Origin: a virus
Strand: one strand, 5' to 3'
Length of the DNA: 64,000 bases
IMG/VR virus record: IMGVR_UViG_3300003177_000010
Location: 32,001 to 96,000 of that record
Positions 1 to 49,803 of this stretch are shown here, one piece after another. Below the pieces are notes generated by a model. The model saw only the letters and a program-made list of their open reading frames with translations, ran no database searches and was not told the origin of the DNA. The translations under genes were made by a program, and so were the position numbers. The number at the start of each line of letters is the position of its first letter. Within the stretch, counting starts at the first letter, position 1.

Positions 1-162
1 TTTATGGGAGAGATTTTTCTGACCAAGACGTTCCGCCTTTTGAATTTCTTTACCAAGAAATGCCATATTATCTTCAAGCTTTTTATATTCCATTTTGTTG
101 ATTTTAGTTTTCAACTCAGCGAAATAATCCTTTGGCTCTGTAATATTATCATCTTCTATCAT
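1..162 (-). CDS. Hypothetical protein, truncated by window edge (MIEDDNITEPKDYFAELK...)
   Basis: ATG at 162-160 preceded by an AGGAGAG SD; frame open to the window edge. Confidence 0.6.
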   Translation of the reverse strand, partial: MIEDDNITEPKDYFAELKTKINKMEYKKLEDNMAFLGKEIQKAERLGQKNLSHK

Positions 163-203
163 GTTATCTCTCCTGTTAACTATAGAATAATAATTATAAT
201 AAA

Positions 204-530
204 GTAGACCCGTTTGGTAATACGGTGGAGTCTATACCGCAAAAAGGATTAGGCAACTAGTGCATAATCTTTAGGTGCTATGTTATCGTTTGCATTTACG
301 AGTTTTGAGCCGATGTGGTGTGCTCATCCAGTAATCTCCACTTTATCCCCAATGTCATTCGATCCTATTTCGACCCCATTATAAGTATATCAGTTTCAGG
401 GTTCGAACCCTCTTACGGCCTAAATAAACTGTTATAATCACCAATGGCCACTGTACACTCAGTGTCAATATACTTATGGTGGAGTCGCTGGGTACTGCCC
501 CCAGGTCATGTCCATTTTTGTATTGTTTCA
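204..530 (-). ncRNA. ssrA: Circularly permuted (two-piece) tmRNA; outer ends approximate
   Basis: Acceptor piece GACCTGGGGGCAGTACCCAGCGACTCCACCA (507-477) lies upstream of the coding piece starting GGGGTCGAAATAGGATCG (377). Stem GGGGTCG/CGACTCC has G3:U70. Tag frame 293-249 reads ANDNIAPKDYALVA*. Confidence 0.93.
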
Positions 531-776
531 TCAATTACTAGGTGTCTTTAAGGCGCATCCCATTCCTATTAATTTCGTCTTTATACTAAACCGGAGAACC
601 GGCCTCAGAATAACTAACTCCGAATCTTCACCCTATGAAGGTGATGTAATTTCACATCTCTAACAATGTCAGTCATTAGATTAGTAGGTGGCACTAGTTA
701 GATAGTATAGCTACCTACTAATTAAGTAAGAACAAGTGCAAAGGCACCTTCGTGGGCTAAGCCTAATAATTCTTAC

Positions 777-1250
777 TTAAAAATCTTCATAGTACAATAT
801 AGGTTTATTAAAAGCATCCATATATTGCTTCATAACATCAGATAAATCTTCATCTTCAGTAGCTACTGGCGCTACTGGCTCTTCTGTACAAGCTGTAGGA
901 ATACCTCCTACAGAATATACTTCGTGTATACCTGTTTGATATTCTCCGTCACCTAATGATTTAGTAACACGGCGATAAGACCAAGTAGGCTCATGATGCT
1001 TTACAGTACCTTTACTAATGGTAAATAAAGTTCTACCTTCGTTATTTAAAATTACATAGCCGCCTGTTTTATTATAATGAATTACTCCATCAATATTACA
1101 AGTATTAGCATCAGTACTGGTTATGCCTACTACTTCATTATTAAGTAAAGCACCGAAAGTACATGTAACACTTCGATATTTCTCCTGTATAGTAATAGTG
1201 CAGTCAGTATAATTTACTACTTCTATACATTTACCTAATAGACTTCTCAT
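777..1250 (-). CDS. Hypothetical protein
   Basis: 157-aa ORF, overlaps the stop of the upstream ORF. Confidence 0.6.
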   Translation of the reverse strand: MRSLLGKCIEVVNYTDCTITIQEKYRSVTCTFGALLNNEVVGITSTDANTCNIDGVIHYNKTGGYVILNNEGRTLFTISKGTVKHHEPTWSYRRVTKSLGDGEYQTGIHEVYSVGGIPTACTEEPVAPVATEDEDLSDVMKQYMDAFNKPILYYEDF

Positions 1251-1540
1251 TTTGTTTTCCTGTATTTAGGTTCAATTTTTTCGTAAGTTTTGGGAAAAAA
1301 GCGTGTATAAGACTCTTTTGTAGTTACTTGTAAAAGACCTTGCTCATCGCATAATGTACATGGTTCTTTATAGGTCTCTGTTTGAAAATCATGATAATTA
1401 ATTACCTTTTCTTTTTCAATAAAACCTATACCGCCACAGTTATTACACAACTTATCCTCTACAGTAGTACGTATATATACAGATATATCACCATATAGAC
1501 CTATAATATATTCGTCTGCTGGTAGCTCTTTTACAACCAT
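1247..1540 (-). CDS. Small protein with DnaJ-type zinc-finger motifs
   Basis: CNNCGGIG and CTLCDEQG. Confidence 0.6.
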   Translation of the reverse strand: MVVKELPADEYIIGLYGDISVYIRTTVEDKLCNNCGGIGFIEKEKVINYHDFQTETYKEPCTLCDEQGLLQVTTKESYTRFFPKTYEKIEPKYRKTK

Positions 1541-1616
1541 TATATTCCTTTCTTAAGAGTAATATAGATATTATTCCATTATTGGCACTCTATTTTATTT
1601 TGTTCTACGCACTAAT

Positions 1617-1692
1617 TGGTTGCGGGAGTAGGACTCGAACCTACGACCTCTTGGTTATGAGCCAAGCTAGCTGCCGCTGCTAACATCCCGCA
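1617..1692 (-). tRNA. tRNA-Met(CAT), initiator-like
   Basis: TGCGGGA/TCCCGCA-A-CCA; anticodon arm CTTGG-CTCATAA-CCAAG; T-loop TTCGAGT. Confidence 0.9.
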
Positions 1693-1710
1693 TTAATTTC
1701 TTTATACTCC

Positions 1711-1756
1711 AATGTAATACTAAAATAAGCGTTAGGCAATTTTAAACTTCGTTTAA
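1711..1756 (-). promoter_or_regulatory. Sigma70-like promoter with upstream TTAAACGAAGTTTAA box
   Basis: TTGCCT-17 nt-TACATT directly upstream of tRNA-Met; box at 1742-1756. Confidence 0.65.
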
Positions 1757-1869
1757 TAAGTACTTCAGCTATAAATAAGCCCTACTACAAAGTCATTTTA
1801 GTGACAGCTCACGTCATCCATATATAGCACCTGCAGACACTATGTACATTTTGTAGTAGGACTTAACTT

Positions 1870-1954
1870 TGGTGGAAGAGTGTCGAGTCGAACGACACGC
1901 TATTACACTCCGGTTTTACAGACCTTCTGCGGATACCCTCCGCTGAACTCTTCC
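1870..1954 (-). tRNA. tRNA-Tyr(GTA), atypical D-arm and anticodon stem
   Basis: GGAAGAG/CTCTTCC-A-CCA; loop CTGTAAA; long variable region; T-arm GTGTCG-TTCGACT-CGACAC. Confidence 0.8.
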
Positions 1955-2205
1955 ATTATTTCTTATAGGATAAAGGACGTTACTTCCTTTTGACTCTCCT
2001 TTACGCTATTCAACGAAGTTGAATAATAACACGTCTATAAGCCTGCCACGGAGATCTCTTATAGTTGGCGGTCACTTAACTCTAAGTAAGTAATCCTATA
2101 AAAATAAGCAGTTATCACTCTACTCGTAAATACTACTAAAAAATAATAAATCTTGTAGTAACTGCTCCGATATACTGTAGATTTTTTTGATCGGTTTATG
2201 ACTGT

Positions 2206-2403
2206 CTACGAACCGGAAGTCATTTTTAGTATATCGTTTAATTGTTCTTTACTATGTATAGCTGCTTGAATTGCTATATCAAAATCTTTAGCATTTTTAG
2301 TATTACATAAGCAATAAAAAACTACGTTTTTATGTAACCCGCTGGAAATAGCATTTCCTAAGGCAGAAGCCATAATGTCATAATCAGAAATATCTTTATA
2401 CAT
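2206..2403 (-). CDS. Hypothetical protein
   Basis: ORF coupled to 2396-2671. Confidence 0.5.
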   Translation of the reverse strand: MYKDISDYDIMASALGNAISSGLHKNVVFYCLCNTKNAKDFDIAIQAAIHSKEQLNDILKMTSGS

Positions 2404-2671
2404 ATTGATACTTAATAGTGCTTAGGACTAATATACGTAGAATTATTTGCTGTAATTCTAAAGGAAAGTCAGCTGGTTTACCCTCTAAATAATTAATAAT
2501 CCTTGTTACAGACTTCTCATACCTTAATAATTCTTTTCTCTTTTTTCTATCTTCACATTTCTGAGAGCTACTCGCAAAATACTTTCTTTGCTCTTTGAAA
2601 TACGCAATATCTGTGTAGCTATAGCTACTAGCTAAATCCATTCTTAGTACTTTAGGTATATTATAGCGCAT
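2396..2671 (-). CDS. Hypothetical protein
   Basis: 91-aa ORF in a run of coupled ORFs. Confidence 0.5.
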   Translation of the reverse strand: MRYNIPKVLRMDLASSYSYTDIAYFKEQRKYFASSSQKCEDRKKRKELLRYEKSVTRIINYLEGKPADFPLELQQIILRILVLSTIKYQYV

Positions 2672-2832
2672 TATTTAATAATCTCTGCTGCGATACATAC
2701 ACCTCTAACTTGTGTTGGCTCTAACTGTGTGAGAGCTGCTTGACACGCTTCAAAGCTGTCTAGTTTCACTGTAGTTATTCCGTTATGGGATATAAATAAC
2801 ACCAGAATATAAGCACCTGCAGTATTAATCAT
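2671..2832 (-). CDS. Small hypothetical protein with hydrophobic N-terminus (MINTAGAYILVLFISHNG...)
   Basis: Translated by eye; TAATG coupling to the next ORF. Confidence 0.45.
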   Translation of the reverse strand: MINTAGAYILVLFISHNGITTVKLDSFEACQAALTQLEPTQVRGVCIAAEIIK

Positions 2833-2947
2833 TATGTTTCTTCTAAAAAATTAAATGCCTGAGAACCTCTTCATCTCTCACATTGTTCTGTAATTAAATA
2901 GCTATCAGGTAAGCACTATAAACCACTAAATTTATACTTGTATTATG

Positions 2948-3023
2948 TGGCGAAACTGAAGGGGATTGAACCCTCGACCTCCTACGTGACAGGCAGGCGC
3001 TCTAACCACTGAGCTACAGTTCC
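2948..3023 (-). tRNA. tRNA-Asp(GTC)
   Basis: Canonical cloverleaf, loop CTGTCAC, G73-CCA. Confidence 0.95.
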
Positions 3024-3114
3024 AAAAAATTGCTACAGCAGATGTTAATTAGGGCCACCTTACGAATTTGAACCACGAAACATTCCACTCATTTTGCTCT
3101 ACTCGATAATTAGT

Positions 3115-3192
3115 TGGTCCTGCCGACGAGATTCGAACTCGCATTGGTCTCATTGAAAGTGAGGGTTCCTAGTCCAATTAGAAGACGGCAGG
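3115..3192 (-). tRNA. tRNA-Glu(TTC)
   Basis: CCTGCCG/CGGCAGG-A-CCA, loop CTTTCAA. Confidence 0.9.
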
Positions 3193-3650
3193 ATATACTT
3201 ATGCTAGCTAGACACATATTTAACTAGTAATTTCTTACTGCTACAGGCATTAGGTAGTTGACACGGAGTGTCACGGCGCAACATTTAAGGGTATCCATAT
3301 ACACAAACAGAAGTATTATCGAGAGTGAGAATTGAGCCTAATATCTCTGTACTGTTATTAGGCCAATCCGCACAACGCATTAATTCATAGGCTATTACTT
3401 ATAAAAGCTGCTGTATACAAATTTAAAGCATTGCTGCTACCTAATTTTTACCTTTAAACTATTACTCTCCAATAATAGTGCTAACGTACTTAGTTAAAGT
3501 AGTAATTAGGCGCTGTTATTCCTTATACAGTAGGATTGAGTATTCTTTATCTTTACAGCTTATATCGGTTCAGGGGATACTATCCTAATAGCTACGTATA
3601 ACTAAAAGCATAAAGAAATGAGTATCTTCATTTAATTACGACCTGAATGT

Positions 3651-3727
<77 letters not shown>

Positions 3728-4005
3728 AATGAGTTAGGTTCTACTGCGAGACAGCGACTTAGCCAAACCTACGCGTTTGGTTCCATGAATTCGTATAGCT
3801 ACTATAATTTCTAGAGTTAGTAGCTATTTGAGGTATTGAATAGTTAATCCTGTAGTGTATACCGCACACTTTTATATTTAATTATTAAGGTTCAATAAAC
3901 ATAATAAACAAACCTACGATCACTCCCGCAATAGAGATTATATGATATAGTTCACATAACAAAACTATGTACCGTATTGAGTAACTATCTCAATTTAGTA
4001 TATTT

Positions 4006-4082
4006 TGGTAGTCCCACCTGGACTCGAACCAGGACTCAAAGCGTTATGAGCGCCCTACTTTAACCGATTAAGCTATGGGACC
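4006..4082 (-). tRNA. tRNA(CAT), probably Ile2 (lysidine, reads AUA)
   Basis: GGTCCCA acceptor with C4:G69 and C5:G68 TilS determinants; loop CTCATAA; tilS nearby. Confidence 0.85.
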
Positions 4083-4407
4083 AAAGAATAGGCTAGTAGT
4101 AATGAATATTCCCTACTAAGTTTCCTGCGGTCGGAGATTTGTATAATTTAGACCGCAACCATTAATTTGGAATAGCATGAGATTGATTAATTCTCTTATA
4201 CAGGAACGCTATTAATGCCTAGATAAGTATGTATGGAACACCTAACTTCTCCCTCTGTATACAATGCTCTACAGTTAGCAAATTTATTATCTCAGTTTAT
4301 TCTGCGTCTGGTTCCTACGAGTTAATCATTCTCGCCTCCCAAATCCCTCTTTATAACCCATTATAATATAAAAATAGGCTATAAACAAGAATAAACTTCG
4401 TTTAAAA

Positions 4408-4489
4408 TGGTAGAAGGCATAACCGACCCTATAAGGTTATCCGGTTTTCGTAGAGTTAGTCATACATCACTGAAATGACTTGCCTTCTA
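4408..4489 (-). ncRNA. CCA-terminated tRNA-like RNA without a canonical T-loop
   Basis: TAGAAGGCA/TGCCTTCTA closing stem followed by CCA; internal hairpins AGTCAT/ATGACT and ATAACC/GGTTAT; promoter at 4531-4559. Confidence 0.45.
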
Positions 4490-4530
4490 TTAAAAAATTT
4501 ATTTTGTTAAATAACTTTTCTTTATAATCC

Positions 4531-4830
4531 AATATAACGCAAAAATAAGCGTTAAGCAAGTTTAAATTTCGTTCAAAATATGATCTGTACCAGATTAAAT
4601 TGAACTTTATTAGCGAGAGTAAGATTCGATACTTACATTCTGAGTAGTCTCAGGCTTAACTTAGGGGATCTCGCTAATAACTATCGAAAGTAAGAATCGA
4701 GCTTACATTGCCTATAACAATTCATTCATCTGATTTCGATATAACTAATATAACATTTAAAAAAGCGTTTAGCAATTTTAAACTTCGTTTAAAATATGAA
4801 CTGTACCAGTTTAAATTAAACTTCGTTTAA
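4531..4830 (-). repeat. Imperfect ~76-bp direct repeat of a promoter cassette (4531-4607 and 4748-4823)
   Basis: Both copies carry TTGCT(T/A)-17-TATATT, an AAACGAAGTTT-like box and a CTG-GTA-CAG palindrome. Confidence 0.8.
4607..4741 (-). ncRNA. Two tandem mini tRNA-like RNAs (4607-4680, 4682-4741)
   Basis: 12-bp and 8-bp terminal stems, each with a GTAAG-(TCGA loop)-CTTAC T-arm next to the 3' strand. Confidence 0.45.
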
Positions 4831-5409
4831 AATCTTCTTTCTAACAACTTTATGTAATCCAGGATTTACTAGTAAGGCTCTAGGAAGAATTTCATGTCTA
4901 ATAAAATTACGCATATACTTAGTATCTTGATTAGATTTATCTTCTACCCAATTTACGTCGCGTTTATTGCACCAACGAATAAACTCTTCTTTTTTATTAA
5001 GTCTAAAAGGTCTAATAACATTCCTATTAGCATAAGGAATGATATTCCCTTTTCCGTGTAGGCTGCTAAAAAGCCATTGCTCTACACAATCATCTAAATG
5101 GTGTCCAGTAATTACTGGAGTATCAAAACTATGAAAAATAGAATATCTCTCATTTCTCCAATGCTCCTCTTGGCTTACTCCGATAGGAACTGTAGTATTG
5201 ATGCTAAAGACGTGTAAAGCAAGGTCGTTATTTTCAGCGTAAGTGGTGACAAACGTTTCTGCAATAGAACTTGTTTCGGTCCCATGATTTATAAATACTA
5301 AATTAACAGTATGATTATTCTTAAGAAAATCTACAATAGCTACACTATCTACACCGCCGCTAAATGCGACAGTTACTTCTCTTGGTAATTTCCCTTGAAT
5401 AGCAATCAT
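4816..5409 (-). CDS. tilS: tRNA(Ile)-lysidine synthetase, catalytic domain only
   Basis: SGGVDS PP-loop, TGHHLDD, IRP, EDKSN..Y.RN.IRH motifs. Confidence 0.9.
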   Translation of the reverse strand: MIAIQGKLPREVTVAFSGGVDSVAIVDFLKNNHTVNLVFINHGTETSSIAETFVTTYAENNDLALHVFSINTTVPIGVSQEEHWRNERYSIFHSFDTPVITGHHLDDCVEQWLFSSLHGKGNIIPYANRNVIRPFRLNKKEEFIRWCNKRDVNWVEDKSNQDTKYMRNFIRHEILPRALLVNPGLHKVVRKKILNEV

Positions 5410-5467
5410 TGTTTCTTCCTCTCTATAATTAAATATACATTATAAAAAAGAATTAAGCAACTATATT

Positions 5468-6049
5468 TTAAAAAGCACAGGCATATAAAAGATCTAAAGA
5501 TTCTTTTTCTTTTTGTACTGTTTCTATAGACTTAATGGGTATATTAAACTCATTATAACCAAGTTTAGCTACATCTATATCAAAAAATTTTAAGGCTTTT
5601 ACATAATCATTATATACCATCCCATTTACTAGGTCTACCTCAATGTGCTTAATATTATAGTTAGTATCTAATAAAGCACAAAGAGGTAAGTCATCAATTA
5701 TTAAAAATTTATCATCTTCTTCGGCATTATCCTCTATCCACCACAGTATTTCATGTGATCTTTTTGAGGATTTACTTTTAGGTGTTAATGCTACACGCGC
5801 ATAATCAAAACGTAGTCCACATTTATATAGTAAATCTTTTAGTTTTTTCTCTTCTAAAAACCAAGACCAGTTAGTAGAAAGTACAATTTTAGCATCTGCA
5901 TAATCAGCAATTAGATTATGTAAACGAACTGCAAAAGGGTCAAAAGTAGGTAAACCTTTTTTAGTTTTATGGAATTTATAGTTTTCTTGTAAAAAATTCA
6001 ATTTAGCAGGTAACAGAGGCCCGTCAATATCTACAAATATATAATTCAT
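5468..6049 (-). CDS. HAD-domain protein of the 'Swiss Army Knife' RNA-repair type
   Basis: FVDIDGPL, IVLSTNW, R..EI..W, IIDD motifs. Confidence 0.75.
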   Translation of the reverse strand: MNYIFVDIDGPLLPAKLNFLQENYKFHKTKKGLPTFDPFAVRLHNLIADYADAKIVLSTNWSWFLEEKKLKDLLYKCGLRFDYARVALTPKSKSSKRSHEILWWIEDNAEEDDKFLIIDDLPLCALLDTNYNIKHIEVDLVNGMVYNDYVKALKFFDIDVAKLGYNEFNIPIKSIETVQKEKESLDLLYACAF

Positions 6050-6050
6050 T

Positions 6051-6506
6051 TTAATTCCTCAAAAAAGTTAAAGCTTCAAGATAGTTATTATAAGACAGAC
6101 CGTCTATTAAGTCTGCTTTTATATTTTTAATGTTACTTTGTGGGAAATTCAGTAGTAAATCATCAATTACTAGAATTTTGTCTTCTGAGGTACAGTTAAC
6201 ATCTATCCACTGTTGTATTTCCTTAACTCTATTACCTACTTTATTAGTAACAGAGCTACTAGCGTAAGTAAAATTAAAGCCGCAATTATATAGTATATTT
6301 TTTATCTCATATTCAGAAAAGTAATTAGTCCAATTTGTTGCTAATATTATCTTAGCTTTTTATGCTAGTTTATTATAAGCAAAAACTGCAAAAGGGTCAA
6401 ATGTAGGTAAACCTTTTTTAGTCTTGCGATACTTATAATTGTTACCTAGCCTACTAAATTTAACAGGCAATAACGGGCCATCAATATCTACAAATACATA
6501 GTTCAT
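6051..6506 (-). pseudogene. Tandem paralog of the HAD gene with a single in-frame TAA at codon 49
   Basis: MNYVFVDIDGPLLP...KTKKGLPTFDPFAV...LA*KAKIILATNW...ILVIDDL; stop at 6362-6360, frame otherwise intact. Confidence 0.85.
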
Positions 6507-6796
6507 CTTAAGCTTTTATAAAATTTTGAAGTTTCTTCATAAGCGCTTTCACATTCTGTGCAAGGCTCTCCGTTTATTTCCCCATACCCACCATTACAAG
6601 TATTATTACCACATTTCCAACATATATGCATATAACGGTCACAATGTTTACAAAAGGTTAATTTATGCTTCTTATCTTTTGGTGCTATATGGTTACTAGT
6701 ATTGTAAGAAAAATCTAGAGTAGATATATCATAATCCCTAACTAACCTATAATAAATGCTCGGGACAGTGCTTTTTCCAATGTTATATTTCTGCAT
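6503..6796 (-). CDS. Cys-rich zinc-finger hypothetical protein
   Basis: CKHC, CWKC, CNGG, CTEC. Confidence 0.6.
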   Translation of the reverse strand: MQKYNIGKSTVPSIYYRLVRDYDISTLDFSYNTSNHIAPKDKKHKLTFCKHCDRYMHICWKCGNNTCNGGYGEINGEPCTECESAYEETSKFYKSLR

Positions 6797-6940
6797 ATAC
6801 TATCTCTACAACTTTTTCGTAGTCGTTATAATCTGGCTTATCTAAGTGAAATTCTGGTATATAATTACTCATGTCTGTTCCCCAGTCTATTTTAGGGTAG
6901 CAAAGGTAAGCTTTTTTTTAACATAGTTAAATATCCTTAT

Positions 6941-7015
6941 TGGTGCTCCAGTCAGGAATCAAACCTGCTTCTCCGACTTACAAGATCGGGCATCATTCTT
7001 AAATGTTTCAAGAGC
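6941..7015 (-). tRNA. tRNA-Thr(TGT)
   Basis: CCGAT-CTTGTAA-GTCGG; A-CCA end; T-loop TTTGATT. Confidence 0.85.
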
Positions 7016-7019
7016 GTTG

Positions 7020-7436
7020 TTAGGTATATAGCGCTACAGCATATTCTATTTTATTGAAGGTGTTAAGTTTAGCTAAAGTATCTTCTATAAACCATTTATC
7101 TGCTATTTCGTCAAAAAATACTGCATTAATTTTACCTTTTGGTATTGTATAGCCTCTTTTTTCCCTACCTACCATTACTACTTTATCGTGTAAAATAGGC
7201 GTAAAGTTTTTATTATACTTTGAGTATATAATAGGATATTTCTCAGTACAAGCTAAGGCGTTAATTAGGTAACTTTTTCCTACTTGTCTAGGTGTTTTCA
7301 TTATTAAAGTTTTATACTCTAATAAATAGCTATAACGTGATAGATATTCAGGGTTATCACGTAATTTACTATTTTTCATTTCCTCTATTAAAGCAAACAT
7401 ATATACTTGAAATTTATTATCCATTAAGTACCTCAT
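7020..7436 (-). CDS. Small P-loop NTPase resembling a terminase ATPase subdomain
   Basis: TPRQVGKS Walker A, VFFDE Walker B; start moved to 7436 because the longer ORF overlaps tRNA-Gln. Confidence 0.6.
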   Translation of the reverse strand: MRYLMDNKFQVYMFALIEEMKNSKLRDNPEYLSRYSYLLEYKTLIMKTPRQVGKSYLINALACTEKYPIIYSKYNKNFTPILHDKVVMVGREKRGYTIPKGKINAVFFDEIADKWFIEDTLAKLNTFNKIEYAVALYT

Positions 7437-7438
7437 GC

Positions 7439-7513
7439 TGGTTGGAGAGGCAGGATTCGAACCTACGATCTTCTGAATCAAAGTCAGACGTCCTACCACT
7501 AGACCACTCTCCA
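7439..7513 (-). tRNA. tRNA-Gln(TTG)
   Basis: TGGAGAG/CTCTCCA-A-CCA, loop CTTTGAT. Confidence 0.93.
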
Positions 7514-7821
7514 AAAATTATTGGTAAGGGTACCATTCCACCACACCCTCAATAATTAATTGTTATTACTACCGAATAGAGTAGTCTGTTTAAATTTCTT
7601 CAAACCTACTTTATTAATTGTTTTTAGAAAAGCTTTATATAGTGCTTGTTGCATAATTATATTCCTATAAATAAAAATTGCTATGATTTATTAGATACAT
7701 AGCCTTAGTAACTTACAAACAGCAACCACGCTGTAAAATTACTAATTTGACCGGAGGCATAACTTTTAGCACGAAAGCACTGGTAATACTTTCTATAGTC
7801 AGTGGGCTTTACCGGAAGACC

Positions 7822-7903
7822 TGGCATAAGCGCGAGGAATCGAACCCCTTGCCAATACGTTTGGAAGGTAGCACCTATCCAGTAGATATTAGGCTGCGCT
7901 TAT
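7822..7903 (-). tRNA. tRNA-Gly(TCC)-like, atypical
   Basis: ATAAGCG/CGCTTAT-G-CCA, CTTCCAA loop in a bulged stem, T-loop TTCGATT. Confidence 0.6.
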
Positions 7904-7908
7904 ATAAT

Positions 7909-7983
7909 TGGTGCTTATGGGTAGAATCGAACTACCTACTCGGGGGCCTTCAACTCCCAGCTCTACCAATGAGCTACATAAGC
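7909..7983 (-). tRNA. tRNA-Phe(GAA)
   Basis: Cloverleaf, loop TTGAAGG, A-CCA. Confidence 0.9.
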
Positions 7984-8095
7984 AAAATAACTACAACTGA
8001 TTACAGACTTTTACTGCTTTCTACATACTAACCAGACAGCAGATAGTATAAGTTTTCTAAATAAACAAAAGGTACTAGTTCTTTTGTTTATTTCT

Positions 8096-8170
8096 TGGCT
8101 CCCTAGAAAGGATTCGAACCTTTGATATACTAATTAACAATCAGTTGCCTTACCACTTGGCTACTAGGGA
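8096..8170 (-). tRNA. tRNA-Asn(GTT)
   Basis: TCCCTAG/CTAGGGA-G-CCA, loop TTGTTAA. Confidence 0.93.
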
Positions 8171-8221
8171 ATAATTTTATTGCCGAATTATTTGCACTAC
8201 AAGTTAGAGCAATACCTCTGT

Positions 8222-8310
8222 TTTTTAGCAATAGGATTTGCACCTATAAGTCCTGTCACAGACAACCGGATTTTACTCCAGTCACGTATACTAGTTCCGT
8301 CATACTAAAA
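8222..8310 (-). pseudogene. Degenerate tRNA-Leu-like gene
   Basis: Leu-type D region ATGACGGAACTAGTATACG, long variable arm, 6-nt anticodon loop GTAAAA, no CCA. Confidence 0.55.
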
Positions 8311-8359
8311 AATTCATTGGGTGCCTCAGCTTTACGTACGACACACCTACAACAGTTAC

Positions 8360-8435
8360 TGGCATCGGTGCAGGGATTCGAACCCTGGACTCATGGTTTT
8401 GGAGACCACTGCTCTGACCACTGAGCTACACCGAT
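8360..8435 (-). tRNA. tRNA-Trp(CCA)
   Basis: Canonical, loop CTCCAAA, G-CCA. Confidence 0.95.
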
Positions 8436-8439
8436 AAAT

Positions 8440-8515
8440 TGGTCAGAGTGGTGAGACTCGAACTCACGATCTCCGGAATCCAAGTCCGACGACTTACCAA
8501 CTAGCCTACACTCTG
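8440..8515 (-). tRNA. tRNA-Pro(TGG)
   Basis: CAGAGTG/CACTCTG-A-CCA, loop CTTGGAT. Confidence 0.93.
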
Positions 8516-8566
8516 CTATCAGCCGGAAATTCTTTTTACATGCAGCCGGATCTGCATATTATTTCT

Positions 8567-8643
8567 GTACTCTCGATAGAAATCAAACCTACGGTCTTCA
8601 CCTTATAAGAACAATGAGATGATACCTCGCTACAAAATAGTAC
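8567..8643 (-). pseudogene. Degenerate tRNA remnant related to the neighbouring tRNA-Arg(ACG)
   Basis: gtactctcgatag.aatc.aaccta shared with 8730-8754. Confidence 0.4.
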
Positions 8644-8727
8644 CCTTGCTCCTTACCGTGGTGTACCGACTCTTTGGTGAGCACTCAGTAGCAATCTTTC
8701 GAAGGCGGGCATTTCTACTGATAATTT

Positions 8728-8800
8728 TGGTACTCTCGATAGGAATCGAACCTATACGTCAGCTTTCGTAGAGCCAAGTCCATTATCCATCGGCGAGAGT
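8728..8800 (-). tRNA. tRNA-Arg(ACG), reduced D-arm
   Basis: ACTCTCG/CGAGAGT-A-CCA, loop CTACGAA. Confidence 0.85.
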
Positions 8801-8806
8801 ATAAAT

Positions 8807-8880
8807 TGGAGGTATAGATCAGATTTGAACTGATGTAACTGAGTTTGCAATCCAGCGCGTAGCCTCTCCGCCACTATACC
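8807..8880 (-). tRNA. tRNA-Cys(GCA)
   Basis: GGTATAG/CTATACC-T-CCA (U73), GCA anticodon. Confidence 0.92.
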
Positions 8881-8993
8881 ATTAATAGATTGGTTAGCCG
8901 CTTCCTAACCACAGGCCGGTACTTGATCCTTATGATCTGGCCCCGACTTGGCGCTGCACGGAACTAAACAACTATGTTGTTAGTCAAAAAAAA

Positions 8994-9076
8994 TGGAGCG
9001 GGCGACGAGAATCGAACTCGCCATGGAATTAACCGCTAGCTTGGAAGGCTAGTTCTACACCTTGTAGATCACCCGC
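8994..9076 (-). tRNA. tRNA-Gly(TCC) with 6-bp D-stem and long variable region
   Basis: GCGGGTG/CGCCCGC-T-CCA; CTAGC-CTTCCAA-GCTAG. Confidence 0.88.
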
Positions 9077-9184
9077 AAAAAGTCGATTTTGAAACAGAAC
9101 TATCGTAAACCGCATTTGTATACATTGTAAGCAGTGCATCATCACTGTAGGAACTACATCCCGCAACCTCTCCTGTATACACAT

Positions 9185-9215
9185 AAAAAAACCCTCACTA
9201 ATTTCTTAGGAGGGT
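9185..9215 (-). terminator. Intrinsic terminator (candidate attenuator) upstream of the tRNA array
   Basis: ACCCTCCTAA-GAAA-TTAGTGAGGGT followed by a T run. Confidence 0.85.
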
Positions 9216-9244
9216 GTAGACTAGTTAAAATAAGTATATAATAC

Positions 9245-9319
9245 TTATCCGCCATACCCTTCATAAGCCATAGGAAAATCCCATGCACATATATTTTCTT
9301 GTATATTAAATAGTCTCAT
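9245..9319 (-). CDS. 24-aa leader peptide MRLFNIQENICAWDFPMAYEGYGG
   Basis: AAGAGAG SD-like sequence before ATG; ends 30 nt before the terminator; last codons are complementary to the terminator 5' arm. Confidence 0.7.
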   Translation of the reverse strand: MRLFNIQENICAWDFPMAYEGYGG

Positions 9320-9366
9320 TTTGTATTCTCTCTTTTAATCAGTTTACCTGATTTTCTTTATAATTA

Positions 9367-9395
9367 AATATAGCACAAAATTTAGCAATAGTCAA
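9367..9395 (-). promoter_or_regulatory. Sigma70-like promoter of the leader/tRNA operon
   Basis: TTGACT-17 nt-TATATT with an extended -10 TG. Confidence 0.8.
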
Positions 9396-9440
9396 CAACT
9401 TTTTTAATTTTTTATGTAAGGTGCTGAAGTGTTTCTTATA

Positions 9441-9878
9441 CTACAGCGAATTAAAAAATCTCTCTAAAACTATATTAGATAAATCCTTATATTCTTTATT
9501 TAGCTTTTTAAAGTCTCTGATTAGCACAGCATTACTTACTTTATTAACATCTTCATCTAAAAAGTTAATGTAATAAGTTAAGTCGTCTTTTAGCTTAGGA
9601 TAATATACATTTTGTAGCTTTACGTCTTTAGTCCACCCTAGAAATATCTCAGACTCGCTATCAATATGGTCACTATCAAACTGGTCTACAAGCTGTTCAA
9701 GGCTATCAGTAGCATAGGCATCTGTAACAGTTTCACCTAAATGGTATTGAGAAAACTCTTCTGGAACCTCTCCAACGGTAACATAATCTTTATACGGATT
9801 AGGGTCTGTATCTCCATCTTCCATTTTTACTACATAACGATGGCGAAATGATTGAATTGACGTAATTACTGCGTACAT
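9441..9878 (-). CDS. Hypothetical protein
   Basis: 145-aa ORF with AAGGGA SD. Confidence 0.65.
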   Translation of the reverse strand: MYAVITSIQSFRHRYVVKMEDGDTDPNPYKDYVTVGEVPEEFSQYHLGETVTDAYATDSLEQLVDQFDSDHIDSESEIFLGWTKDVKLQNVYYPKLKDDLTYYINFLDEDVNKVSNAVLIRDFKKLNKEYKDLSNIVLERFFNSL

Positions 9879-9954
9879 TTTATATTCCCTTTATTGATGA
9901 TTATTTTTAACATATAATTTTATCTTTTAGCAAATATAAAATGAAATTTTTTAG

Positions 9955-10044
9955 TGGCGGAAGCAGTGAGATTCGAACTCAATACTACTACAAGTACCTT
10001 TAGGTTAGCAACCCAAGACAGAAACCTTTCTGCTTCTTACTTCC
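9955..10044 (-). tRNA. tRNA-Ser(GCT) with tRNA-Sec-like D-arm
   Basis: GGAAGTA/TGCTTCC, G73-CCA, D-arm GCAGAA-AGGT-TTCTGT, loop TTGCTAA, long variable arm, 4-bp T-stem. Confidence 0.85.
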
Positions 10045-10045
10045 A

Positions 10046-10906
10046 TTACTCTAGTGCATTGTTTTTCGTTTTAGATACTGCGTCCATAACACTGTAATTA
10101 AACACGACTACTAAGATAAGCACTTCTTTAACTTCTGCAATACTAAACCCATCAGTATTAACTACTATTTCTTCAATATCTATAAGTAAATTATCTACTA
10201 TAGCAGATACATATGCACGTCGTGCATCAGCGCTTGGCATACCAATTTTCATTACTACATCAAATCTACTAGGTCTATTAAGAAGTCTAGCAGGTAGCCT
10301 TTCTGGGTAATTAGTAGTAGCTAAAAATAATACTCCGTCTACGTCAGAACTACCATCTAGTAAGTGAGTCATATCTTCGTCACCATGCCTAGCAATAATA
10401 CCATCTATGTCTTCGAATACTACTACAATTTTACGTTCTGGCTCAAGAGTTTTTATAATTTCAATGGAGTCTTCAGCGCTGTCAGCGCTATTAGCAAGGA
10501 TCATAACAGCATCCTCTTTTTCTAGCATACCAGCTAGTCTATATATAGTAGCCGACTTACCACTACCTGGAGGTCCATATAGTAAAATGCCGCGTTTATA
10601 GACAAAATTTAGCTTAGCGTAATCTTTTCTCTTTGTCCAGAAATCTTTTATATGGCTTAGAACAGTGGAGGAGGAATCATCAGGTAGTTTTACAAGACCG
10701 TCAACAGACATAGATAGCCTCTGAAGAAAAGGCTCCACACCCCAAGGAGCGCGGTATTTATATATACCTGCTGGTATCTTACCTTTAGAATAACCACCAA
10801 CTCTCCAAGTCTGCGCTTGAGAATCAGTAGCCCATACAGGGTCTTTTATCTTTAGCGGTTTTTTATATTTGAATGGCTGTACATTTTTAACAACTATATT
10901 TGACAT
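10046..10906 (-). CDS. AAA+ ATPase
   Basis: GPPGSGKS, VFEDID, ATTN, RPSRFD. Confidence 0.9.
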   Translation of the reverse strand: MSNIVVKNVQPFKYKKPLKIKDPVWATDSQAQTWRVGGYSKGKIPAGIYKYRAPWGVEPFLQRLSMSVDGLVKLPDDSSSTVLSHIKDFWTKRKDYAKLNFVYKRGILLYGPPGSGKSATIYRLAGMLEKEDAVMILANSADSAEDSIEIIKTLEPERKIVVVFEDIDGIIARHGDEDMTHLLDGSSDVDGVLFLATTNYPERLPARLLNRPSRFDVVMKIGMPSADARRAYVSAIVDNLLIDIEEIVVNTDGFSIAEVKEVLILVVVFNYSVMDAVSKTKNNALE

Positions 10907-10972
10907 TTTTTAATCCTTATGTTAGCTTATTAATAGTATATAATATAACATAATAATAGTCAAATAATAAAA

Positions 10973-11326
10973 TTAAAATCCGCTATATGGATATGTAATC
11001 CAAGACTTAATATTATAGTAGGATACATCTTTACCGTACTTATTAACCATAGTGTGTATGCGTTTAAGTAAGTATTTATCTGCTAAAGGACTATTGAGGG
11101 CTTTACAATTCTGCTCTACAGTCTTATACTCTTTATTACTTATTATGGCTCTAGCTAAAAAAGTAGCTCTATTTTCCCTACGAACAGTAATTTTTCTATG
11201 GTTAGCTAAATTATTTAACATGCTAACGTCTTTATTATTACTTTGTTTGATCTTTAACTCTTCAAAGCGTATAAGTTTAGCCTCTATACCTAAGTGCTTT
11301 GACTTTATTTTAAGTTCTATACTCAT
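10973..11326 (-). CDS. Basic hypothetical protein
   Basis: 117-aa ORF on the coding strand. Confidence 0.65.
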   Translation of the reverse strand: MSIELKIKSKHLGIEAKLIRFEELKIKQSNNKDVSMLNNLANHRKITVRRENRATFLARAIISNKEYKTVEQNCKALNSPLADKYLLKRIHTMVNKYGKDVSYYNIKSWITYPYSGF

Positions 11327-11626
11327 TATATCATCTTTATATTATTATACTTATAGCTATACAGTAATTTCAATCCATATATCTGAAGGATTAACTATTA
11401 CGTTATATTACCTGTGTGCAAGGTTCTACCTCTGGCCAACATCTTACCTGACTTATCCTTTAAAGACGCTATTCCGCCTTTCTATAATTATTTATAACAT
11501 TAAAATTAACCATTAGGCAAATGTTATTTTGATTTTTTAAGAGTTTACCCGTTATTAAATAGTTTTAACTCTAATACTACATACACTATAGTTATATATA
11601 GCATTAAAATTAGCCGTTAGGCAATA

Positions 11627-12454
11627 TTAAACTTCGTTTAATGGCCAGTAAGGCTGTTCAATATTGAATGTTCTATATATTTTACTACAATCTAGCCTAG
11701 AGTTTTTAGGTCTTTTTATAGAATCGTTACTGCCCTTAGTACTAATTCGATTAATTTTACAAGTATAATTATTACTTTTTACTATGTATTCTGCAAAGTC
11801 AGCCCAACTAACTGCGGGTACTCCTGAATAATTATACACACCAGATACAGTACTATTTCGAAGTAGCTTTTTAGCAATAGTAGGAATTATACTGGCTATA
11901 CTTGACGCAGATGTAGGCCCTCCTATTTGATCGTCTACTACACTTATACTACTCTGATTTGTAGCAAGGTTTTTTATAGTATTTACAAAATTTTTACCTT
12001 TATCAGAAAATACCCAAGAAGTCCTAATTATAGCATAAGTACCCCCAACCCTAGATATACCTATATCAGCTAACTCTTTAGTTATACCATATGAGTTTAT
12101 AGGGTGAGTTCTATTTTTCTCTTTATATGCTTTTTTCTTTTTACCATTATATACATAGTCAGTAGAAATGTGGATAAAAACTTTATTATTGTCTTTTGCT
12201 GCCTGGGCCATAACAATAGGTGTTATACTGTTTACTATGTATGCTTCTTTCATATTATCTGGGCAGTTCTTAACACCTGTATAAGCAGCTAAATTAACAA
12301 TTACATCTGCATCAGACTTTTTTATTATATCAGTACAGGCATCAGTATTTAATAAATTAGCAGTAGATCTATTTATAAATATTGCGTTATCTACTACATC
12401 CTTAAATGCAGTAGCTATCTGTCCTGTGCTACCAAAAACTAAATATTTTATCAT
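11627..12454 (-). CDS. rmlD: dTDP-4-dehydrorhamnose reductase
   Basis: GSTGQIA, AAYT.V, HISTDYVY, YGITK, DQIGGPT, RPKNSRLD. Confidence 0.93.
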   Translation of the reverse strand: MIKYLVFGSTGQIATAFKDVVDNAIFINRSTANLLNTDACTDIIKKSDADVIVNLAAYTGVKNCPDNMKEAYIVNSITPIVMAQAAKDNNKVFIHISTDYVYNGKKKKAYKEKNRTHPINSYGITKELADIGISRVGGTYAIIRTSWVFSDKGKNFVNTIKNLATNQSSISVVDDQIGGPTSASSIASIIPTIAKKLLRNSTVSGVYNYSGVPAVSWADFAEYIVKSNNYTCKINRISTKGSNDSIKRPKNSRLDCSKIYRTFNIEQPYWPLNEV

Positions 12455-38682: not shown

Positions 38683-39163
38683 AGGAATAACTTATCCATT
38701 CTTTTCTATAAATACTAAGCCTTATAGTATTACGTATGATATTAATACTATAAGACTACAAAAGTACGAAGATACACATACTGAAACAGTAGATGATAAA
38801 ACATTATCTGGTAAATATATTAGTAGACTTTTACAACTGAATAATAGAATTACTTTTGATAATACTAGTAACTCCTTACAGGAGTTACTGTTTAGCAAGG
38901 CTAAATGGGGGATGGATAGTAATGCTATACCATTTGACCTAAGTAATAAAGAAAACTACCCAGCAAAGATACATAAAATAAAAAGGGTAATCGGTAACCT
39001 AATATGGCTACGGAATATATCTTACCCATTTACTCTAGCTATGCCTACCGACGTAGACATTGATAGAGAATTATATGCAGTAACTATACTTATACACAAT
39101 GAATGGTACATTAAAGAGTTTGCATATTATCCAACACTATCTAGAAAATGCATAACAGTATGA
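38624..39163 (+). CDS. Conserved hypothetical protein between pol and D10
   Basis: ORF in T5-like synteny; start uncertain. Confidence 0.6.
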   Translation: MKLGIAGVTYKTKQIISKYKGITYPFFSINTKPYSITYDINTIRLQKYEDTHTETVDDKTLSGKYISRLLQLNNRITFDNTSNSLQELLFSKAKWGMDSNAIPFDLSNKENYPAKIHKIKRVIGNLIWLRNISYPFTLAMPTDVDIDRELYAVTILIHNEWYIKEFAYYPTLSRKCITV

Positions 39164-41520
39164 ACAAAGTACACGTAAAAAGTATAGTAATATCTGATAA
39201 AATATATATGAAAAAAGAGGATGTGGAAGATATAGAGTTATTAACTAAACTTTTTTCATATCCAGGGGTAGATGAAGAGCTAACTACATTAGAAGAGAAT
39301 GAAACCCATTATATGGTGCCTTCTAATGGGTACTATAAGCTAACATGGGATAATGTAATAGACAATAGGACTTTTGAAGAGTTAACATACGACTTAAATT
39401 TTACAGGTACTCTTAGACCAGAACAAGAAGAGTCTGTAGCTAAATTCTTAACTAAAGGCAGAGCAATAAGTGGTATTTTTCAGGCAGAGTGTGGTTATGG
39501 TAAAACATTCGCAGGGTGTGCTATAGTAGCAAGAAACAACACAAGAGCTTTAATACTAGTGCATACTAAATTATTATTTAGGCAATGGATAGAAGAACTA
39601 GAAAAATTATTAGATAATACCAAAATTGGTAAAATTGGCGATGGACTTTTTCAACTAGAAGATGTTACTGTAGCTATATACAAGTCTGCTTTCAATAACA
39701 TTGACAAAATTAAGGATGAATTCTCACTAGCGGTTATCGACGAATGCTTAGATTATGAAGCTGCAGTACAAGATGATAAAGGTAATAAAATTAAAATAGG
39801 TAAAGTAGTTAACAATAAGATGCCTATTAATATACTATGCTACAATGAAAATTTACAGTGTTTTGAATATAAAAAAATATATAACTGGTTTAAAAATAAA
39901 CATGATAATATGTTGTATATACAAACACATAATAATGCTACTTTACGTTGTACAAGTAACCATATAGTATATAAATATGAACAAGGAAAAATAGTAAAGG
40001 TTTCTGCTGACACTCTAAAGATCGGAGACTTTTTAATATCAAATAACAAAAATAAAGTTTCAAAGCTATTAAAAAAGGAGGTCCTACCTATATTACTCGG
40101 GCTGATACTAGGTGAGGGATCTTTAGAGAATACTAGAGGTAAGAAAACTACCAGAGTTAAAATTACTCATGGGTATAAACAACAAGAGTACTTAGAATAT
40201 AAGACTAAAATATTAAAAGATTTTTTTGTAGGTAATACTATAAAAGGGACATCAGGGTATAAACCGGAGAATACAGTATACAGTAACCAATCTGTTAGTT
40301 TTATAGATAATTTAGGATTAATTAGTAAGTTATATGGAGATAAACGATCTAAAAGTACTATAGATAATTCCTTATTTAGTTACATAAATGAATTTACTTG
40401 GGCGCTATTGCACCAAGACGATGGGTCTTACGTAAATGGTCAGATAACTTTTAGCGTGTGTGAGTTAGATGAAAAATCTTGTGAATTATTAATTAAATCT
40501 TTAAAGAGTTTATTTAAGCTGAAAGATCCATATTTTTTTACGTGCAATAGAGGTTTTAAGTACATTAGACTAAAAACTAATGATTCCACTATTTTTTTAC
40601 AAAAAATAAATAAATATATACATCCTACAATGGCGTATAAGACTTGCAACTATCGCCCAGAAAACTTTATACCTATAGAAGTAGATAATATATATGAGAA
40701 TTTTACCCTTAAAGAGATAAAAAAAATTAGTAGTAGGCCCGCTACTAATGGTTATAGGTATAATATTAGTGTAGAAGATAATCACAATTATATAGCTGGA
40801 GGCGTATTAGTAGGTAATTGCCATAAGTCGCCAGCTAATATGTTCTCTACCGTAGTTAATAATCTAAGTGCAAAAGTGAAAATAGGGATATCAGCTACCC
40901 CAAAAAGAAAAGATGGAAAACATGTATTTTTGTATGATTATTTTTCGCCTTTTCATGTAGTAGCTAAGGATGCAAGAACGTTACTTAACCCCTCTATAAA
41001 AATAATAGATACAGATTTTAAATTTAATGTTATACAGCCTAAAAGAGACTGGGCTAGGCAGATTAATAAACTAGCTTCTAATAAAAACTATATAAACTTA
41101 ATTGCTAACCACGCAATAGCAGATATTAATAACAATAGATGCATACTTATACTTAGTGATCGACTAGGTATGCTGAAAGATTTAGAAAAGCTAATACCTA
41201 ATAGCATTTTATTAGTAGGAGCTACTAAAAATGAAGTACGAGAAGATATACTTAAAAATGCAGGTAAAACTTACAAAGTTATACTAACTACGAGGATATT
41301 TGATGAAGGTATTAGCTGTCATAGATTAGACACTATGTACACTACTTGTCCTAGTAATAATCCTAATTTACTAGAACAACGAATAGGTAGAATTATAAGA
41401 GAACACCCAGATAAGGAGGCTCCTTTAGTAAAAGACTTCTGGTTAAAAGGGCATATAGTAGCTCGTCAACAAATGAGTAGAAAATTATGGTATGGTAAAC
41501 GTGGCTATAACATACTTTAA
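39148..41520 (+). CDS. D10/UvsW-like SF2 helicase containing an intein
   Basis: CGYGKT, IDE|CH, SATP.R.DG, QRIGRI.R. Confidence 0.92.
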   Translation: MHNSMNKVHVKSIVISDKIYMKKEDVEDIELLTKLFSYPGVDEELTTLEENETHYMVPSNGYYKLTWDNVIDNRTFEELTYDLNFTGTLRPEQEESVAKFLTKGRAISGIFQAECGYGKTFAGCAIVARNNTRALILVHTKLLFRQWIEELEKLLDNTKIGKIGDGLFQLEDVTVAIYKSAFNNIDKIKDEFSLAVIDECLDYEAAVQDDKGNKIKIGKVVNNKMPINILCYNENLQCFEYKKIYNWFKNKHDNMLYIQTHNNATLRCTSNHIVYKYEQGKIVKVSADTLKIGDFLISNNKNKVSKLLKKEVLPILLGLILGEGSLENTRGKKTTRVKITHGYKQQEYLEYKTKILKDFFVGNTIKGTSGYKPENTVYSNQSVSFIDNLGLISKLYGDKRSKSTIDNSLFSYINEFTWALLHQDDGSYVNGQITFSVCELDEKSCELLIKSLKSLFKLKDPYFFTCNRGFKYIRLKTNDSTIFLQKINKYIHPTMAYKTCNYRPENFIPIEVDNIYENFTLKEIKKISSRPATNGYRYNISVEDNHNYIAGGVLVGNCHKSPANMFSTVVNNLSAKVKIGISATPKRKDGKHVFLYDYFSPFHVVAKDARTLLNPSIKIIDTDFKFNVIQPKRDWARQINKLASNKNYINLIANHAIADINNNRCILILSDRLGMLKDLEKLIPNSILLVGATKNEVREDILKNAGKTYKVILTTRIFDEGISCHRLDTMYTTCPSNNPNLLEQRIGRIIREHPDKEAPLVKDFWLKGHIVARQQMSRKLWYGKRGYNIL
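39745..40818 (+). mobile_element. Intein (358 aa) with LAGLIDADG endonuclease in the helicase DECH motif
   Basis: CLDYE start, CTSNH block B, LGLILGEG and HQDDG, end NYIAGGVLVGN|C. Confidence 0.92.
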
Positions 41521-49600: not shown

Positions 49601-49803
49601 CTTTTGATAGTGAAATAAAGTCAGTATCTCTGTTACCATTCTCAGATCATGGATATGAGCAAGCTCCGTATACTGCAGCACCTTTAGAAGAGGTTCAGCA
49701 ATATGCAGATACATTATTACCCTTAGACTTTAGTTTATTAACTTCAGAGGGTGATAATGCAGAATCAAATAAGTTCTGCTCTAACGACTCTTGTGAGATA
49801 TAA
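46603..49803 (+). CDS. nrdJ: Class II (B12-dependent) ribonucleotide reductase with intein
   Basis: RTYSR, PPGRGLW, GNVRRSA, NP|CAE, TVKPSGT, C-terminal CSNDSC. Confidence 0.93.
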   Translation: MLAIGKKPIKFTLKKAFKDNLNTLPVKWGYEGLSEFTFYRTYSRKKEDGTLETWADCVARVVEGVFSILKTHAISSNLPWNEQRSHKLAEESAERLFEFKWTPPGRGLWIMGTDYLWDKGGMALYNCTFASTENIDADLSKPFAFVMDTMMQGVGAGYDTDGAGKLIVNEPIGDPELIVVEDTREEWVEAISCLIDSYLEDDSNPILIDTHKVRAYGEPIKGFGGVASGPEPLIQGFHGIKEILDNRVNELITVSDIVDIMCIIGKIVVAGNVRRSALITLGDANNEEYINLKNWDRHAIAMGVEAPLELKEISEEDYNNYNNSYDSREAIAKKYATEKWSWKFGGWRWASNNSVYAKAGMDYEKYVDAIAQNGEPGFFWIDTAKNYGRLADGIDVSDREVKGLNPCVSGDTWVLTVEGNKQVKDLVGKPFKAIVNGEAYPSTEEGFWSTGVKPTYEVTLDNGSKVVATGNHKFLNNKDEWVELYNLEIGNTLQINNQKPIWDNEIGNHQEGYFIGQLIGDGTFSPDNKPIITLWVDKDKYSSLNDYGPYIYIQKWLATLPTRSAFLGLSLAVDTDKYMQVRASCSALQQIANKYGVYKLEKKVPEFGSLSFTKGLLQGLFDADGSVQGDLQKGVSIRLTQNNLKRLEAVQRLLLSLGIASKIYKDRKKEDYYKMPDGKGGSKDYLCKAVHELIITRDSIVIFNEQIGFRDNAKKDKLNTIINSYTRKPYKSKYTYKIVSIVPKGEEEVYDCTISEVHRFSANGLIAHNCAEIALESFETCNLNENYPANHEDYWDFQRTLKFSYLYSKAVTLMATNWPETNAIISKNRRIGCSLSGIQEAFIKFGRHNFLEWANDAYDYLGYLDKKYSDWLGIPKSKRRTTVKPSGTVSLLAGALPGIHHTESTSYFRLVRIATTSPLVQILKNSNYKIEPATSDPTRTLVVYFPVIVDSSLPTKKNVSIWQQFKDLADMQKLWADNAVSITVTFSKEEKNQIAACLSAFDSEIKSVSLLPFSDHGYEQAPYTAAPLEEVQQYADTLLPLDFSLLTSEGDNAESNKFCSNDSCEI
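47821..48909 (+). mobile_element. Intein (363 aa) with LAGLIDADG endonuclease at the RNR catalytic NPCxE
   Basis: CVSGDT start, ATGNH, IGQLIGDG, LQGLFDADG, end IAHN|C. Confidence 0.95.

Follow-up and report, generated by a model that had tools for sequence, protein, structure and literature searches.

The closest described systems include the leader attenuators of enterobacteria, some of which are multivalent, such as the thr leader (Thr, Ile) and the ilvGMEDA and ilvBN leaders (Ile, Leu, Val); trpL, hisL, leuL and pheL are further enterobacterial examples. In these attenuators a ribosome stalled at hungry codons favours read-through, and more than one amino acid can be sensed. The phage locus described here resembles them in combining a short leader ORF, whose translation is predicted, with an intrinsic terminator and, reaching into the last codons of the ORF, a predicted antiterminator. 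It differs from them in that the element is phage-borne and the genes presumed to be regulated are tRNAs rather than biosynthetic enzymes or aminoacyl-tRNA synthetases. Whereas enterobacterial leaders carry runs of one to three amino acids, the phage leaders sample 10-15 amino acids once or twice each. A further difference is that no separate 1:2 'protector' helix was seen in the leader RNA, so that an untranslated leader would probably read through (the ON state).

The pheM leader, which regulates the pheST (phenylalanyl-tRNA synthetase) operon of E. coli, is similar in that leader-peptide attenuation is applied to a component of the decoding apparatus instead of to biosynthesis, but it senses one amino acid only (Phe), is of cellular origin and has a protein gene as its target. 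T-box riboswitches likewise read the state of a specific tRNA through the choice between a terminator and an antiterminator. They bind one uncharged tRNA directly, without ribosomes and by means of a conserved fold, whereas the element described here has an ORF and no Rfam match. We know of no description of trp-operon-style control for tRNA genes, and to our knowledge the regulation of phage tRNA genes is largely unknown, these tRNAs being usually treated as constitutive codon-bias helpers.

The trn operon of Anabaena sp. PCC 7120, a 26-gene tRNA array, is induced under translational stress (PMC8421152, PMC10272220) and parallels the present case in being an accessory tRNA array that is kept off and is switched on when translation is impaired. 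Its control is assigned to the RHH repressor TrcR (PMC10272220), and the 2021 paper on the operon contains none of the words leader, attenuator and terminator (PMC8421152). A full-text literature search found no published account of leader peptides ahead of phage or cellular tRNA arrays. If the mechanism proposed below is correct, it would be the first leader-peptide attenuation known to act on the genes of tRNAs, and the first known to follow an OR logic with many inputs. The principle would then cover the supply of tRNAs as well as that of amino acids, with more than ten inputs in place of one to three.

The leader unit and its tRNA array in the window

The window, i.e. the whole 64,000-nt stretch of DNA that was analysed, comprises bases 32001-96000 of a 112,794-bp virus record in IMG/VR, with a G+C content of ~32%. 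Judged by its replication genes, the phage is T5-like, of about 113 kb, and its DNA polymerase is ~39% identical to those of T5-like phages of Salmonella, Proteus and Pantoea. The tmRNA of the array is of a permuted, alphaproteobacterial type, which hints at an alphaproteobacterial host. The features of the leader unit and of the array behind it are collected in Table 1.

Table 1. Features of the leader unit and the tRNA array. Positions are those of the window unless a contig is named.
Feature	Position	Strand	Description
Leader ORF	9245..9319	-	24 codons + TAA; presumed sensor codons in the body, EGYGG tail encoded by the final five
Leader-unit promoter, sigma-70-like	9367..9395	-	TTGACT, 17-nt spacer, TG-extended TATATT; 10/12 matches, TG present
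Shine-Dalgarno-like GAGAG, weak	9328..9332	-	8 nt upstream of the leader ATG; read from the sequence
Antiterminator 5' strand AGGGU	9256..9260	-	Within codons 20-22, 9-13 nt ahead of the stop; pairs with 9215..9211 in the nascent-RNA fold
AT-rich hairpin	9228..9250	-	Begins at the last sense codon and spans the stop codon; apical part of the predicted antiterminator
Intrinsic terminator	9184..9215	-	10-bp bulged stem, 5' arm ACCCUCCUAA, GAAA loop, seven U; -12.2 kcal/mol
First tRNA cluster behind the switch	6941..9076	-	Gly(tcc), Cys, Arg(acg), Pro, Trp, Asn, Phe, Gln; Thr(tgt) at relaxed threshold
Further tRNAs	1617..4082	-	Met/Ile2(cat), Arg(tct), Glu, Asp, Tyr (relaxed threshold), Met(cat); no terminator between
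Permuted tmRNA, alphaproteobacterial-type	158..569	-	Tag ANDNIAPKDYALVA; boundary used for the proximal sub-array
Leader on the contig of L005	L442/L443, near L442:12200-12460		

At default settings ARAGORN called the permuted tmRNA and 13 tRNAs on the - strand of the window, in agreement with Rfam: an 83-nt Gly(tcc), Cys, Arg(acg), Pro, Trp, Asn, Phe, Gln, two Met(cat), Arg(tct), Glu and Asp. Thr(tgt) (22.8 bits in Rfam), Tyr(gta) and a Ser(gct) that lies upstream of the leader were called at a relaxed threshold only. Most of the downstream tRNAs listed in a preliminary description of this DNA are thereby confirmed by ARAGORN and Rfam, Thr and Tyr at the relaxed threshold only. Two of its entries did not hold up: no second tRNA-Gly was found, and in place of a supposed Leu remnant there is only an uninterpretable ARAGORN call at 8222-8310. 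To the left of the window the array goes on along the same strand with Val, His, Ile(gat), Met, Met, Leu(taa), Lys and Ser(tga). Lys, His and Val, which had been described as having no tRNA, do lack one within the window, but all three are encoded in this continuation, and the argument drawn from their joint absence from the leader and the tRNA set therefore fails. Canonical terminators were found at two places in the 16-kb tRNA region, 9184..9215 and the end of the array, with none interrupting the array, and no second leader was found in the window phage genome ahead of the distal Val-His-Ile-Met-Leu-Lys block. The operon upstream, next to the leader, comprises an ATPase gene, the tRNA-Ser and a 145-aa ORF.

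Several further features of the tRNA region were observed. The first tRNA behind the switch, the 83-nt tRNA-Gly(UCC) at 8994-9076 (-), has a long class II-like variable arm while retaining the bacterial Gly identity set (G1-C72, C2-G71, G3-C70, U73, C35, C36), and its best Rfam model is tRNA-Sec, at 41.7 bits and below threshold. A promoter cassette is repeated in the region (~4360-4830 (-), also 9367-9420), with copies elsewhere in the genome; it consists of an A/T-rich box with TTAAACGAAGTTTAA, a TTG-type -35, TATATT or TATAAT, and then TTATAAAGA. The promoter-like repeats at about 4360-4780 could drive the distal tRNAs independently of the leader. Behind one internal promoter repeat, at ~4412-4492 (-), lies a tRNA-like stretch with a 9-bp terminal helix followed by CCA, which was called by neither ARAGORN nor Rfam.

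The translation of the leader ORF is identical to that of the preliminary description, with 15 amino-acid types in its 24 codons, Cys, Trp and an internal Met among them, and no Lys. Its ATG lies ~40 nt downstream of the promoter-like site, and the terminator follows 29 nt after the leader stop, 110 nt ahead of the first tRNA. In the nascent-RNA fold, i.e. the minimum-energy structure obtained when the 3' arm of the terminator is left out, AGGGU in codons 20-22 is paired with ACCCU in the terminator 5' arm, and the stop-codon hairpin is enclosed between them. This antiterminator is short, at 5 bp, and the folding is no better than that of shuffled sequence (z -0.26). A search of window positions 1-12000 with Rfam at E up to 1 gave only tRNA and tmRNA families above threshold, and at 9180-9400 neither a T-box nor any other Rfam family was found at E up to 1.

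We compared the composition of the leader with the tRNAs behind it using the phage's own amino-acid frequencies as background. The leader covers all 12 of the tRNA amino-acid types encoded between itself and the tmRNA (P ~8e-5), whereas its overlap with the whole downstream array is not significant (P 0.02 to 0.8, by measure), since tRNAs for Val, His, Lys and Ser, which lie further along the terminator-free stretch, have no counterpart in the leader. The better-than-chance overlap predicted from the window was thus borne out for the proximal sub-array and not for the array as a whole, and the outcome of the test changes with the assumed end of the regulated unit. Ala occurs twice in the leader and Leu (CTA) is present, both with no matching downstream tRNA, and Thr is absent. 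Counting Ala as matched through the tmRNA, as had been done, is invalid because tmRNA does not decode GCN codons. The matches between leader codons and encoded anticodons that had been put forward as evidence proved equally uninformative: the leader codons are simply the major codons of the phage (ATA makes up 57% of its Ile codons), so that for the window the codon-anticodon argument adds nothing.

Related leader elements in other phages

The closest relative, L005, is a single IMG/VR contig reached with a profile of the ATPase beside the leader; its AAA ATPase is 56% identical to that of the window. ATPase homologues with 55-63% identity were also matched in Logan and ENA, and the same profile found no relative closer than L005 and L085 in GTDB genomes or JGI metagenomes. 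The order of features in L005 is syntenic with the window: the ATPase, tRNA-Ser(gct), a small gene, a promoter-like site, a 21-codon ORF and a hairpin with a U-run, with a tRNA-Cys 4 nt further on. The promoter block and the terminator align between the two, whereas the ORF bodies do not, and the peptide is unrelated. The antiterminator of L005 is strong, forming a long hairpin (z -5.7); L273 and L416 are further relatives with a strong one. The contig carries two leaders of complementary composition, one per sub-array, whereas the window phage has a single leader. Leader one of the contig is rich in Ser, Leu, Gln, Ala and Asp and precedes tRNAs for Ser, Leu, His, Asp, Val and Gln. Leader two precedes Cys, Met, Lys, Phe, Glu, Asn, Ile, Thr and Arg, and lacks Gly, Leu, His, Asp, Val and Gln.

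Other searches for the immediate surroundings of the leader returned little. A blastn search of 8900-9900 found no match among GenBank phages, and exact-pattern searches of IMG/VR with the flanking 145-aa and 286-aa proteins, as well as with the back-translated pattern of the leader peptide, gave nothing. An exhaustive search with the 145-aa neighbour gave repeat-protein and short matches only, with no usable context. By these comparisons the leader peptide itself is not conserved. Roseophage DSS3_MAL1, a candidate reached via tRNA similarity, showed no element under the criteria used.

The architecture of the unit, in contrast to its peptide, recurs widely. We scanned IMG/VR with the terminator pattern alone (CCCTCC, 10-15 nt, GAGGGTTTTTT), defining an element as a mini-ORF with a GGAGG-like motif in its tail and scoring tRNAs within 1.3 kb downstream. 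Among the distinct sites with enough flanking sequence, 18 had both an element and a tRNA, 1 an element only, 3 a tRNA only and 71 neither (Fisher 3e-15). A second scan of IMG/VR, which also required GGAGG 25-55 nt upstream, returned 83 loci. With the two scans pooled, tRNA arrays follow 51 of 53 elements, as against 5 of 96 terminators that have the same stem and no ORF. A finder that does not use the terminator sequence recovered elements with other stems in L008, L039 and L078, and also upstream in the contig of L005.

The anatomy of the unit is conserved in the 51 distinct leaders obtained, nearly all of them ahead of tRNA arrays. They are 19-55 codons long, and in 49 of the 51 the stop codon lies 24-33 nt ahead of the terminator stem, the 29-nt spacing of the window being the family mode. 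A Shine-Dalgarno-like 4-mer precedes 56% of leader ATGs compared with 16% of random ATGs, and a promoter-like site with at least 10/12 matches is found upstream of 24% of leaders compared with 4% of random places. Base pairing between the ORF tail and at least 5 of 6 nt of the terminator 5' arm is present in the minimum-energy nascent fold for 48 of 51 leaders (median z -3.7); this basal pairing is partly built into the loci of the second scan because that scan demanded the upstream GGAGG. The 5'-most pairing partner lies ~16 nt before the stop codon, inside the footprint of a terminating ribosome.

The alignments place a hairpin of other sequence at the equivalent stop-codon position in other family members, and the inner antiterminator helices are kept while their sequences differ (GAGACU/AGUUUC in some, GGAA/UUCC or AAACC/GGUUU in others). 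Many tails of the family end in EGYGG or variants of it, like that of the window leader, whose exact tail is common to L297, L317, L353 and L423; these tails are shared because the conserved nucleotides GGAGGGUU mimic the 3' arm of the terminator. The GGAGGG conserved in the family is GAAGGG in the window. With 24 codons, the one leader of the window phage is unusually short, and its antiterminator is weak.

A covariance model was built from 44 members with the window and L005 left out. With this model cmsearch returned 9184-9276 (-) as the sole match in the window (38 bits, E 1.3e-4) and matched L005 with 44 bits, and the window has the build of the family in its stop-to-stem distance of 29 nt and a tRNA 110 nt downstream. 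RNAalifold on a MAFFT alignment recovered the terminator only; since the terminator stem is fixed by the search pattern, this result gives no evidence of covariation.

Leader composition co-varies with array content

Each leader was paired with the tRNAs lying between it and the next leader downstream, or between it and the end of the data where no further leader followed, giving 48 distinct pairs. That leader content should co-vary with tRNA content across related phages had been predicted from the window, and it does: no permutation among 200,000 reached the observed match of the 48 pairs. With the leaders grouped into 27 clusters at 50% identity or more, leaders cover 96% of the tRNA amino-acid types of their own arrays, compared with 82% in shuffled pairings, and 66% of leader residues have a downstream tRNA in their own array, compared with 53% in shuffled ones (z 6.5-7.6 across both measures). 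The match rises when the last six residues of the leaders, presumably constrained by RNA structure, are trimmed.

This result is not confined to closely related leaders. Single-linkage clustering of leaders below 35% identity chains all of them together and is uninformative, and super-families defined by motifs were used instead; among 14 representatives of these, 0 of 200,000 pairing permutations reached the observed value by any of the four measures. The effect also survives shuffling that is restricted to arrays of one leader family (z 2.2-3.8). Where only some arrays of a family encode the tRNA for an amino acid, having that tRNA in the array predicts that the leader contains the amino acid, with an odds ratio of 5.6. 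Matching at the level of codons is weak across the family (85% observed vs 82% expected), and usage of the six-fold boxes does not discriminate.

Individual loci illustrate the relationship. The leader of L416 is rich in Ser, Tyr, Gly, Glu and Cys, and of the 19 tRNAs behind it 18 serve one of these five amino acids, while ARAGORN could not assign the remaining one. Fragments of jumbo phages (G001-G009) carry two leaders of complementary composition, each ahead of a matching sub-array. As a separate observation, tRNA-Cys is the first tRNA after the switch in 19 of the 48 distinct leader/array pairs (loci L263-L423), often 4-40 nt past the U-run.

A proposed attenuator and its alternatives

We consider it likely that the segment 9395..9184 (-) is a ribosome-mediated transcription attenuator ahead of the phage tRNA array, and that the phage probably makes these tRNAs only when ribosomes read the leader codons slowly. 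In the mechanism we propose, the promoter at 9395..9367 would start a short transcript carrying the 24-codon leader ORF. An antiterminator made up of the last codons of the ORF, the stop-codon hairpin and the sequence up to ACCCU would compete with the intrinsic terminator for the same ACCCUCC arm. A ribosome that reaches the stop codon would cover the 5' strand of the antiterminator, allowing the terminator to fold and to stop transcription 110 nt short of the first tRNA. If the scarcity of any one tRNA instead held the ribosome at its codon, at least six codons ahead of the stop, the antiterminator would persist and the polymerase would read on into the tRNA genes. With the body of the leader spelled in the amino acids of the downstream tRNAs, the element would act as an OR gate over many tRNAs, and the tRNAs produced would feed back negatively on read-through, making their synthesis demand-driven and self-limiting.

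That the leader is a multi-input one which senses the tRNAs downstream of it was already proposed in the preliminary description, and this interpretation is supported by the co-variation across the family together with the conserved attenuator anatomy. Translation of the leader ORF, the polarity of the switch and the downstream reach of its control in the window phage are inferences.

Some of the evidence could also be read as the mark of a real class of element of which the window holds a decayed copy, or one with a leaky terminator, in which the 5-bp antiterminator no longer switches and internal promoters mainly drive the tRNAs. The fold of the window, scoring far from the family median (z -0.26 vs -3.7), the GAAGGG that stands in the place of the conserved GGAGGG and the promoter-like repeats within the array would all fit such decay. 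Weaker helices are, however, to be expected at 32% G+C, and in the window the minimum-energy fold retains the pairing between 5' arm and ORF tail, the stop-to-terminator spacing of 29 nt is still the family mode, and the leader still covers 12/12 proximal tRNA amino-acid types; on balance we regard decay as unlikely. A switch that senses general translation status (ribosome availability, antibiotics, stress) instead of particular tRNAs, and in which any slowing of the lead ribosome opens the array, seems to us quite improbable. Its geometry would indeed answer any stall, and the Anabaena trn operon is an example of a tRNA array inducible by general translational stress, but neither the array-specific composition of the leaders nor the partition between two leaders within one genome would be explained.

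The two remaining alternatives give the leader peptide no part in sensing tRNAs. T5-like phages have many small ORFs among their tRNAs, and the leader could be an ordinary small early gene, or a chance ORF, with a promoter of its own, the terminator just ending the upstream operon and the match in composition being a coincidence, as the non-significant overlap with the whole downstream array in the window might suggest. We find this very improbable given a build that recurs in 51 distinct leaders, almost only ahead of tRNA arrays, with the stop codon at a fixed distance from the terminator and with peptide bodies that diverge freely yet track their own arrays. Scarcely credible, finally, is direct binding of uncharged tRNAs by the leader RNA, in the manner of a T-box, which would sense them without ribosomes and make the ORF incidental. 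The regulated products would here be tRNAs, and T-box leaders do sense tRNAs via a codon-like specifier; against this stand the Rfam search over 1-12000, which at E up to 1 gave no match to a T-box or other such family, the ATG, enriched Shine-Dalgarno-like sequence and in-frame stop at a fixed terminator distance of the leaders, and a leader length and sequence that vary freely, unlike those of a folded aptamer.

Taking the element, then, to be a ribosome-mediated attenuator, we lean towards the wider view that phages from T5-like to jumbo carry a general, programmable gauge of the tRNA pool, in which each block of tRNAs would lie behind a codon-sampling leader and any stall would open the block. 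If leaders do list the tRNAs behind them, phages would be gauging decoding speed codon by codon and making tRNAs on demand. Leaders of this kind would also allow co-regulated tRNAs to be predicted from sequence only and would provide a compact natural part for sensing tRNA availability. Such a switch bears on the arms race around the cleavage and depletion of host tRNAs, and the gauge may serve as a direct counter to host tRNA depletion or to anticodon-nuclease defences, an idea with which the tRNA-repair genes interleaved with the array (a TilS-type gene and an HAD RNA-repair domain) fit.

The first of these, at 4816-5409 (-), is a PP-loop, TilS-type gene (PF01171, 105 bits) that lies among the tRNA genes and makes the Ile2 (ATA) reading of one CAT tRNA plausible. 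The other, at 5468-6049 (-), carries the HAD domain of 'Swiss Army Knife' RNA-repair proteins (PF18143) and is likewise interleaved with tRNA genes; the array region as a whole looks like a tRNA supply-and-repair island. Elsewhere in the window, a 790-aa helicase (39148-41520 (+)) contains a LAGLIDADG homing-endonuclease segment, and a 1066-aa ribonucleotide reductase (46603-49803 (+)) matches phage ribonucleotide reductases in two pieces, ~65% covered, which suggests an intein-like insertion.
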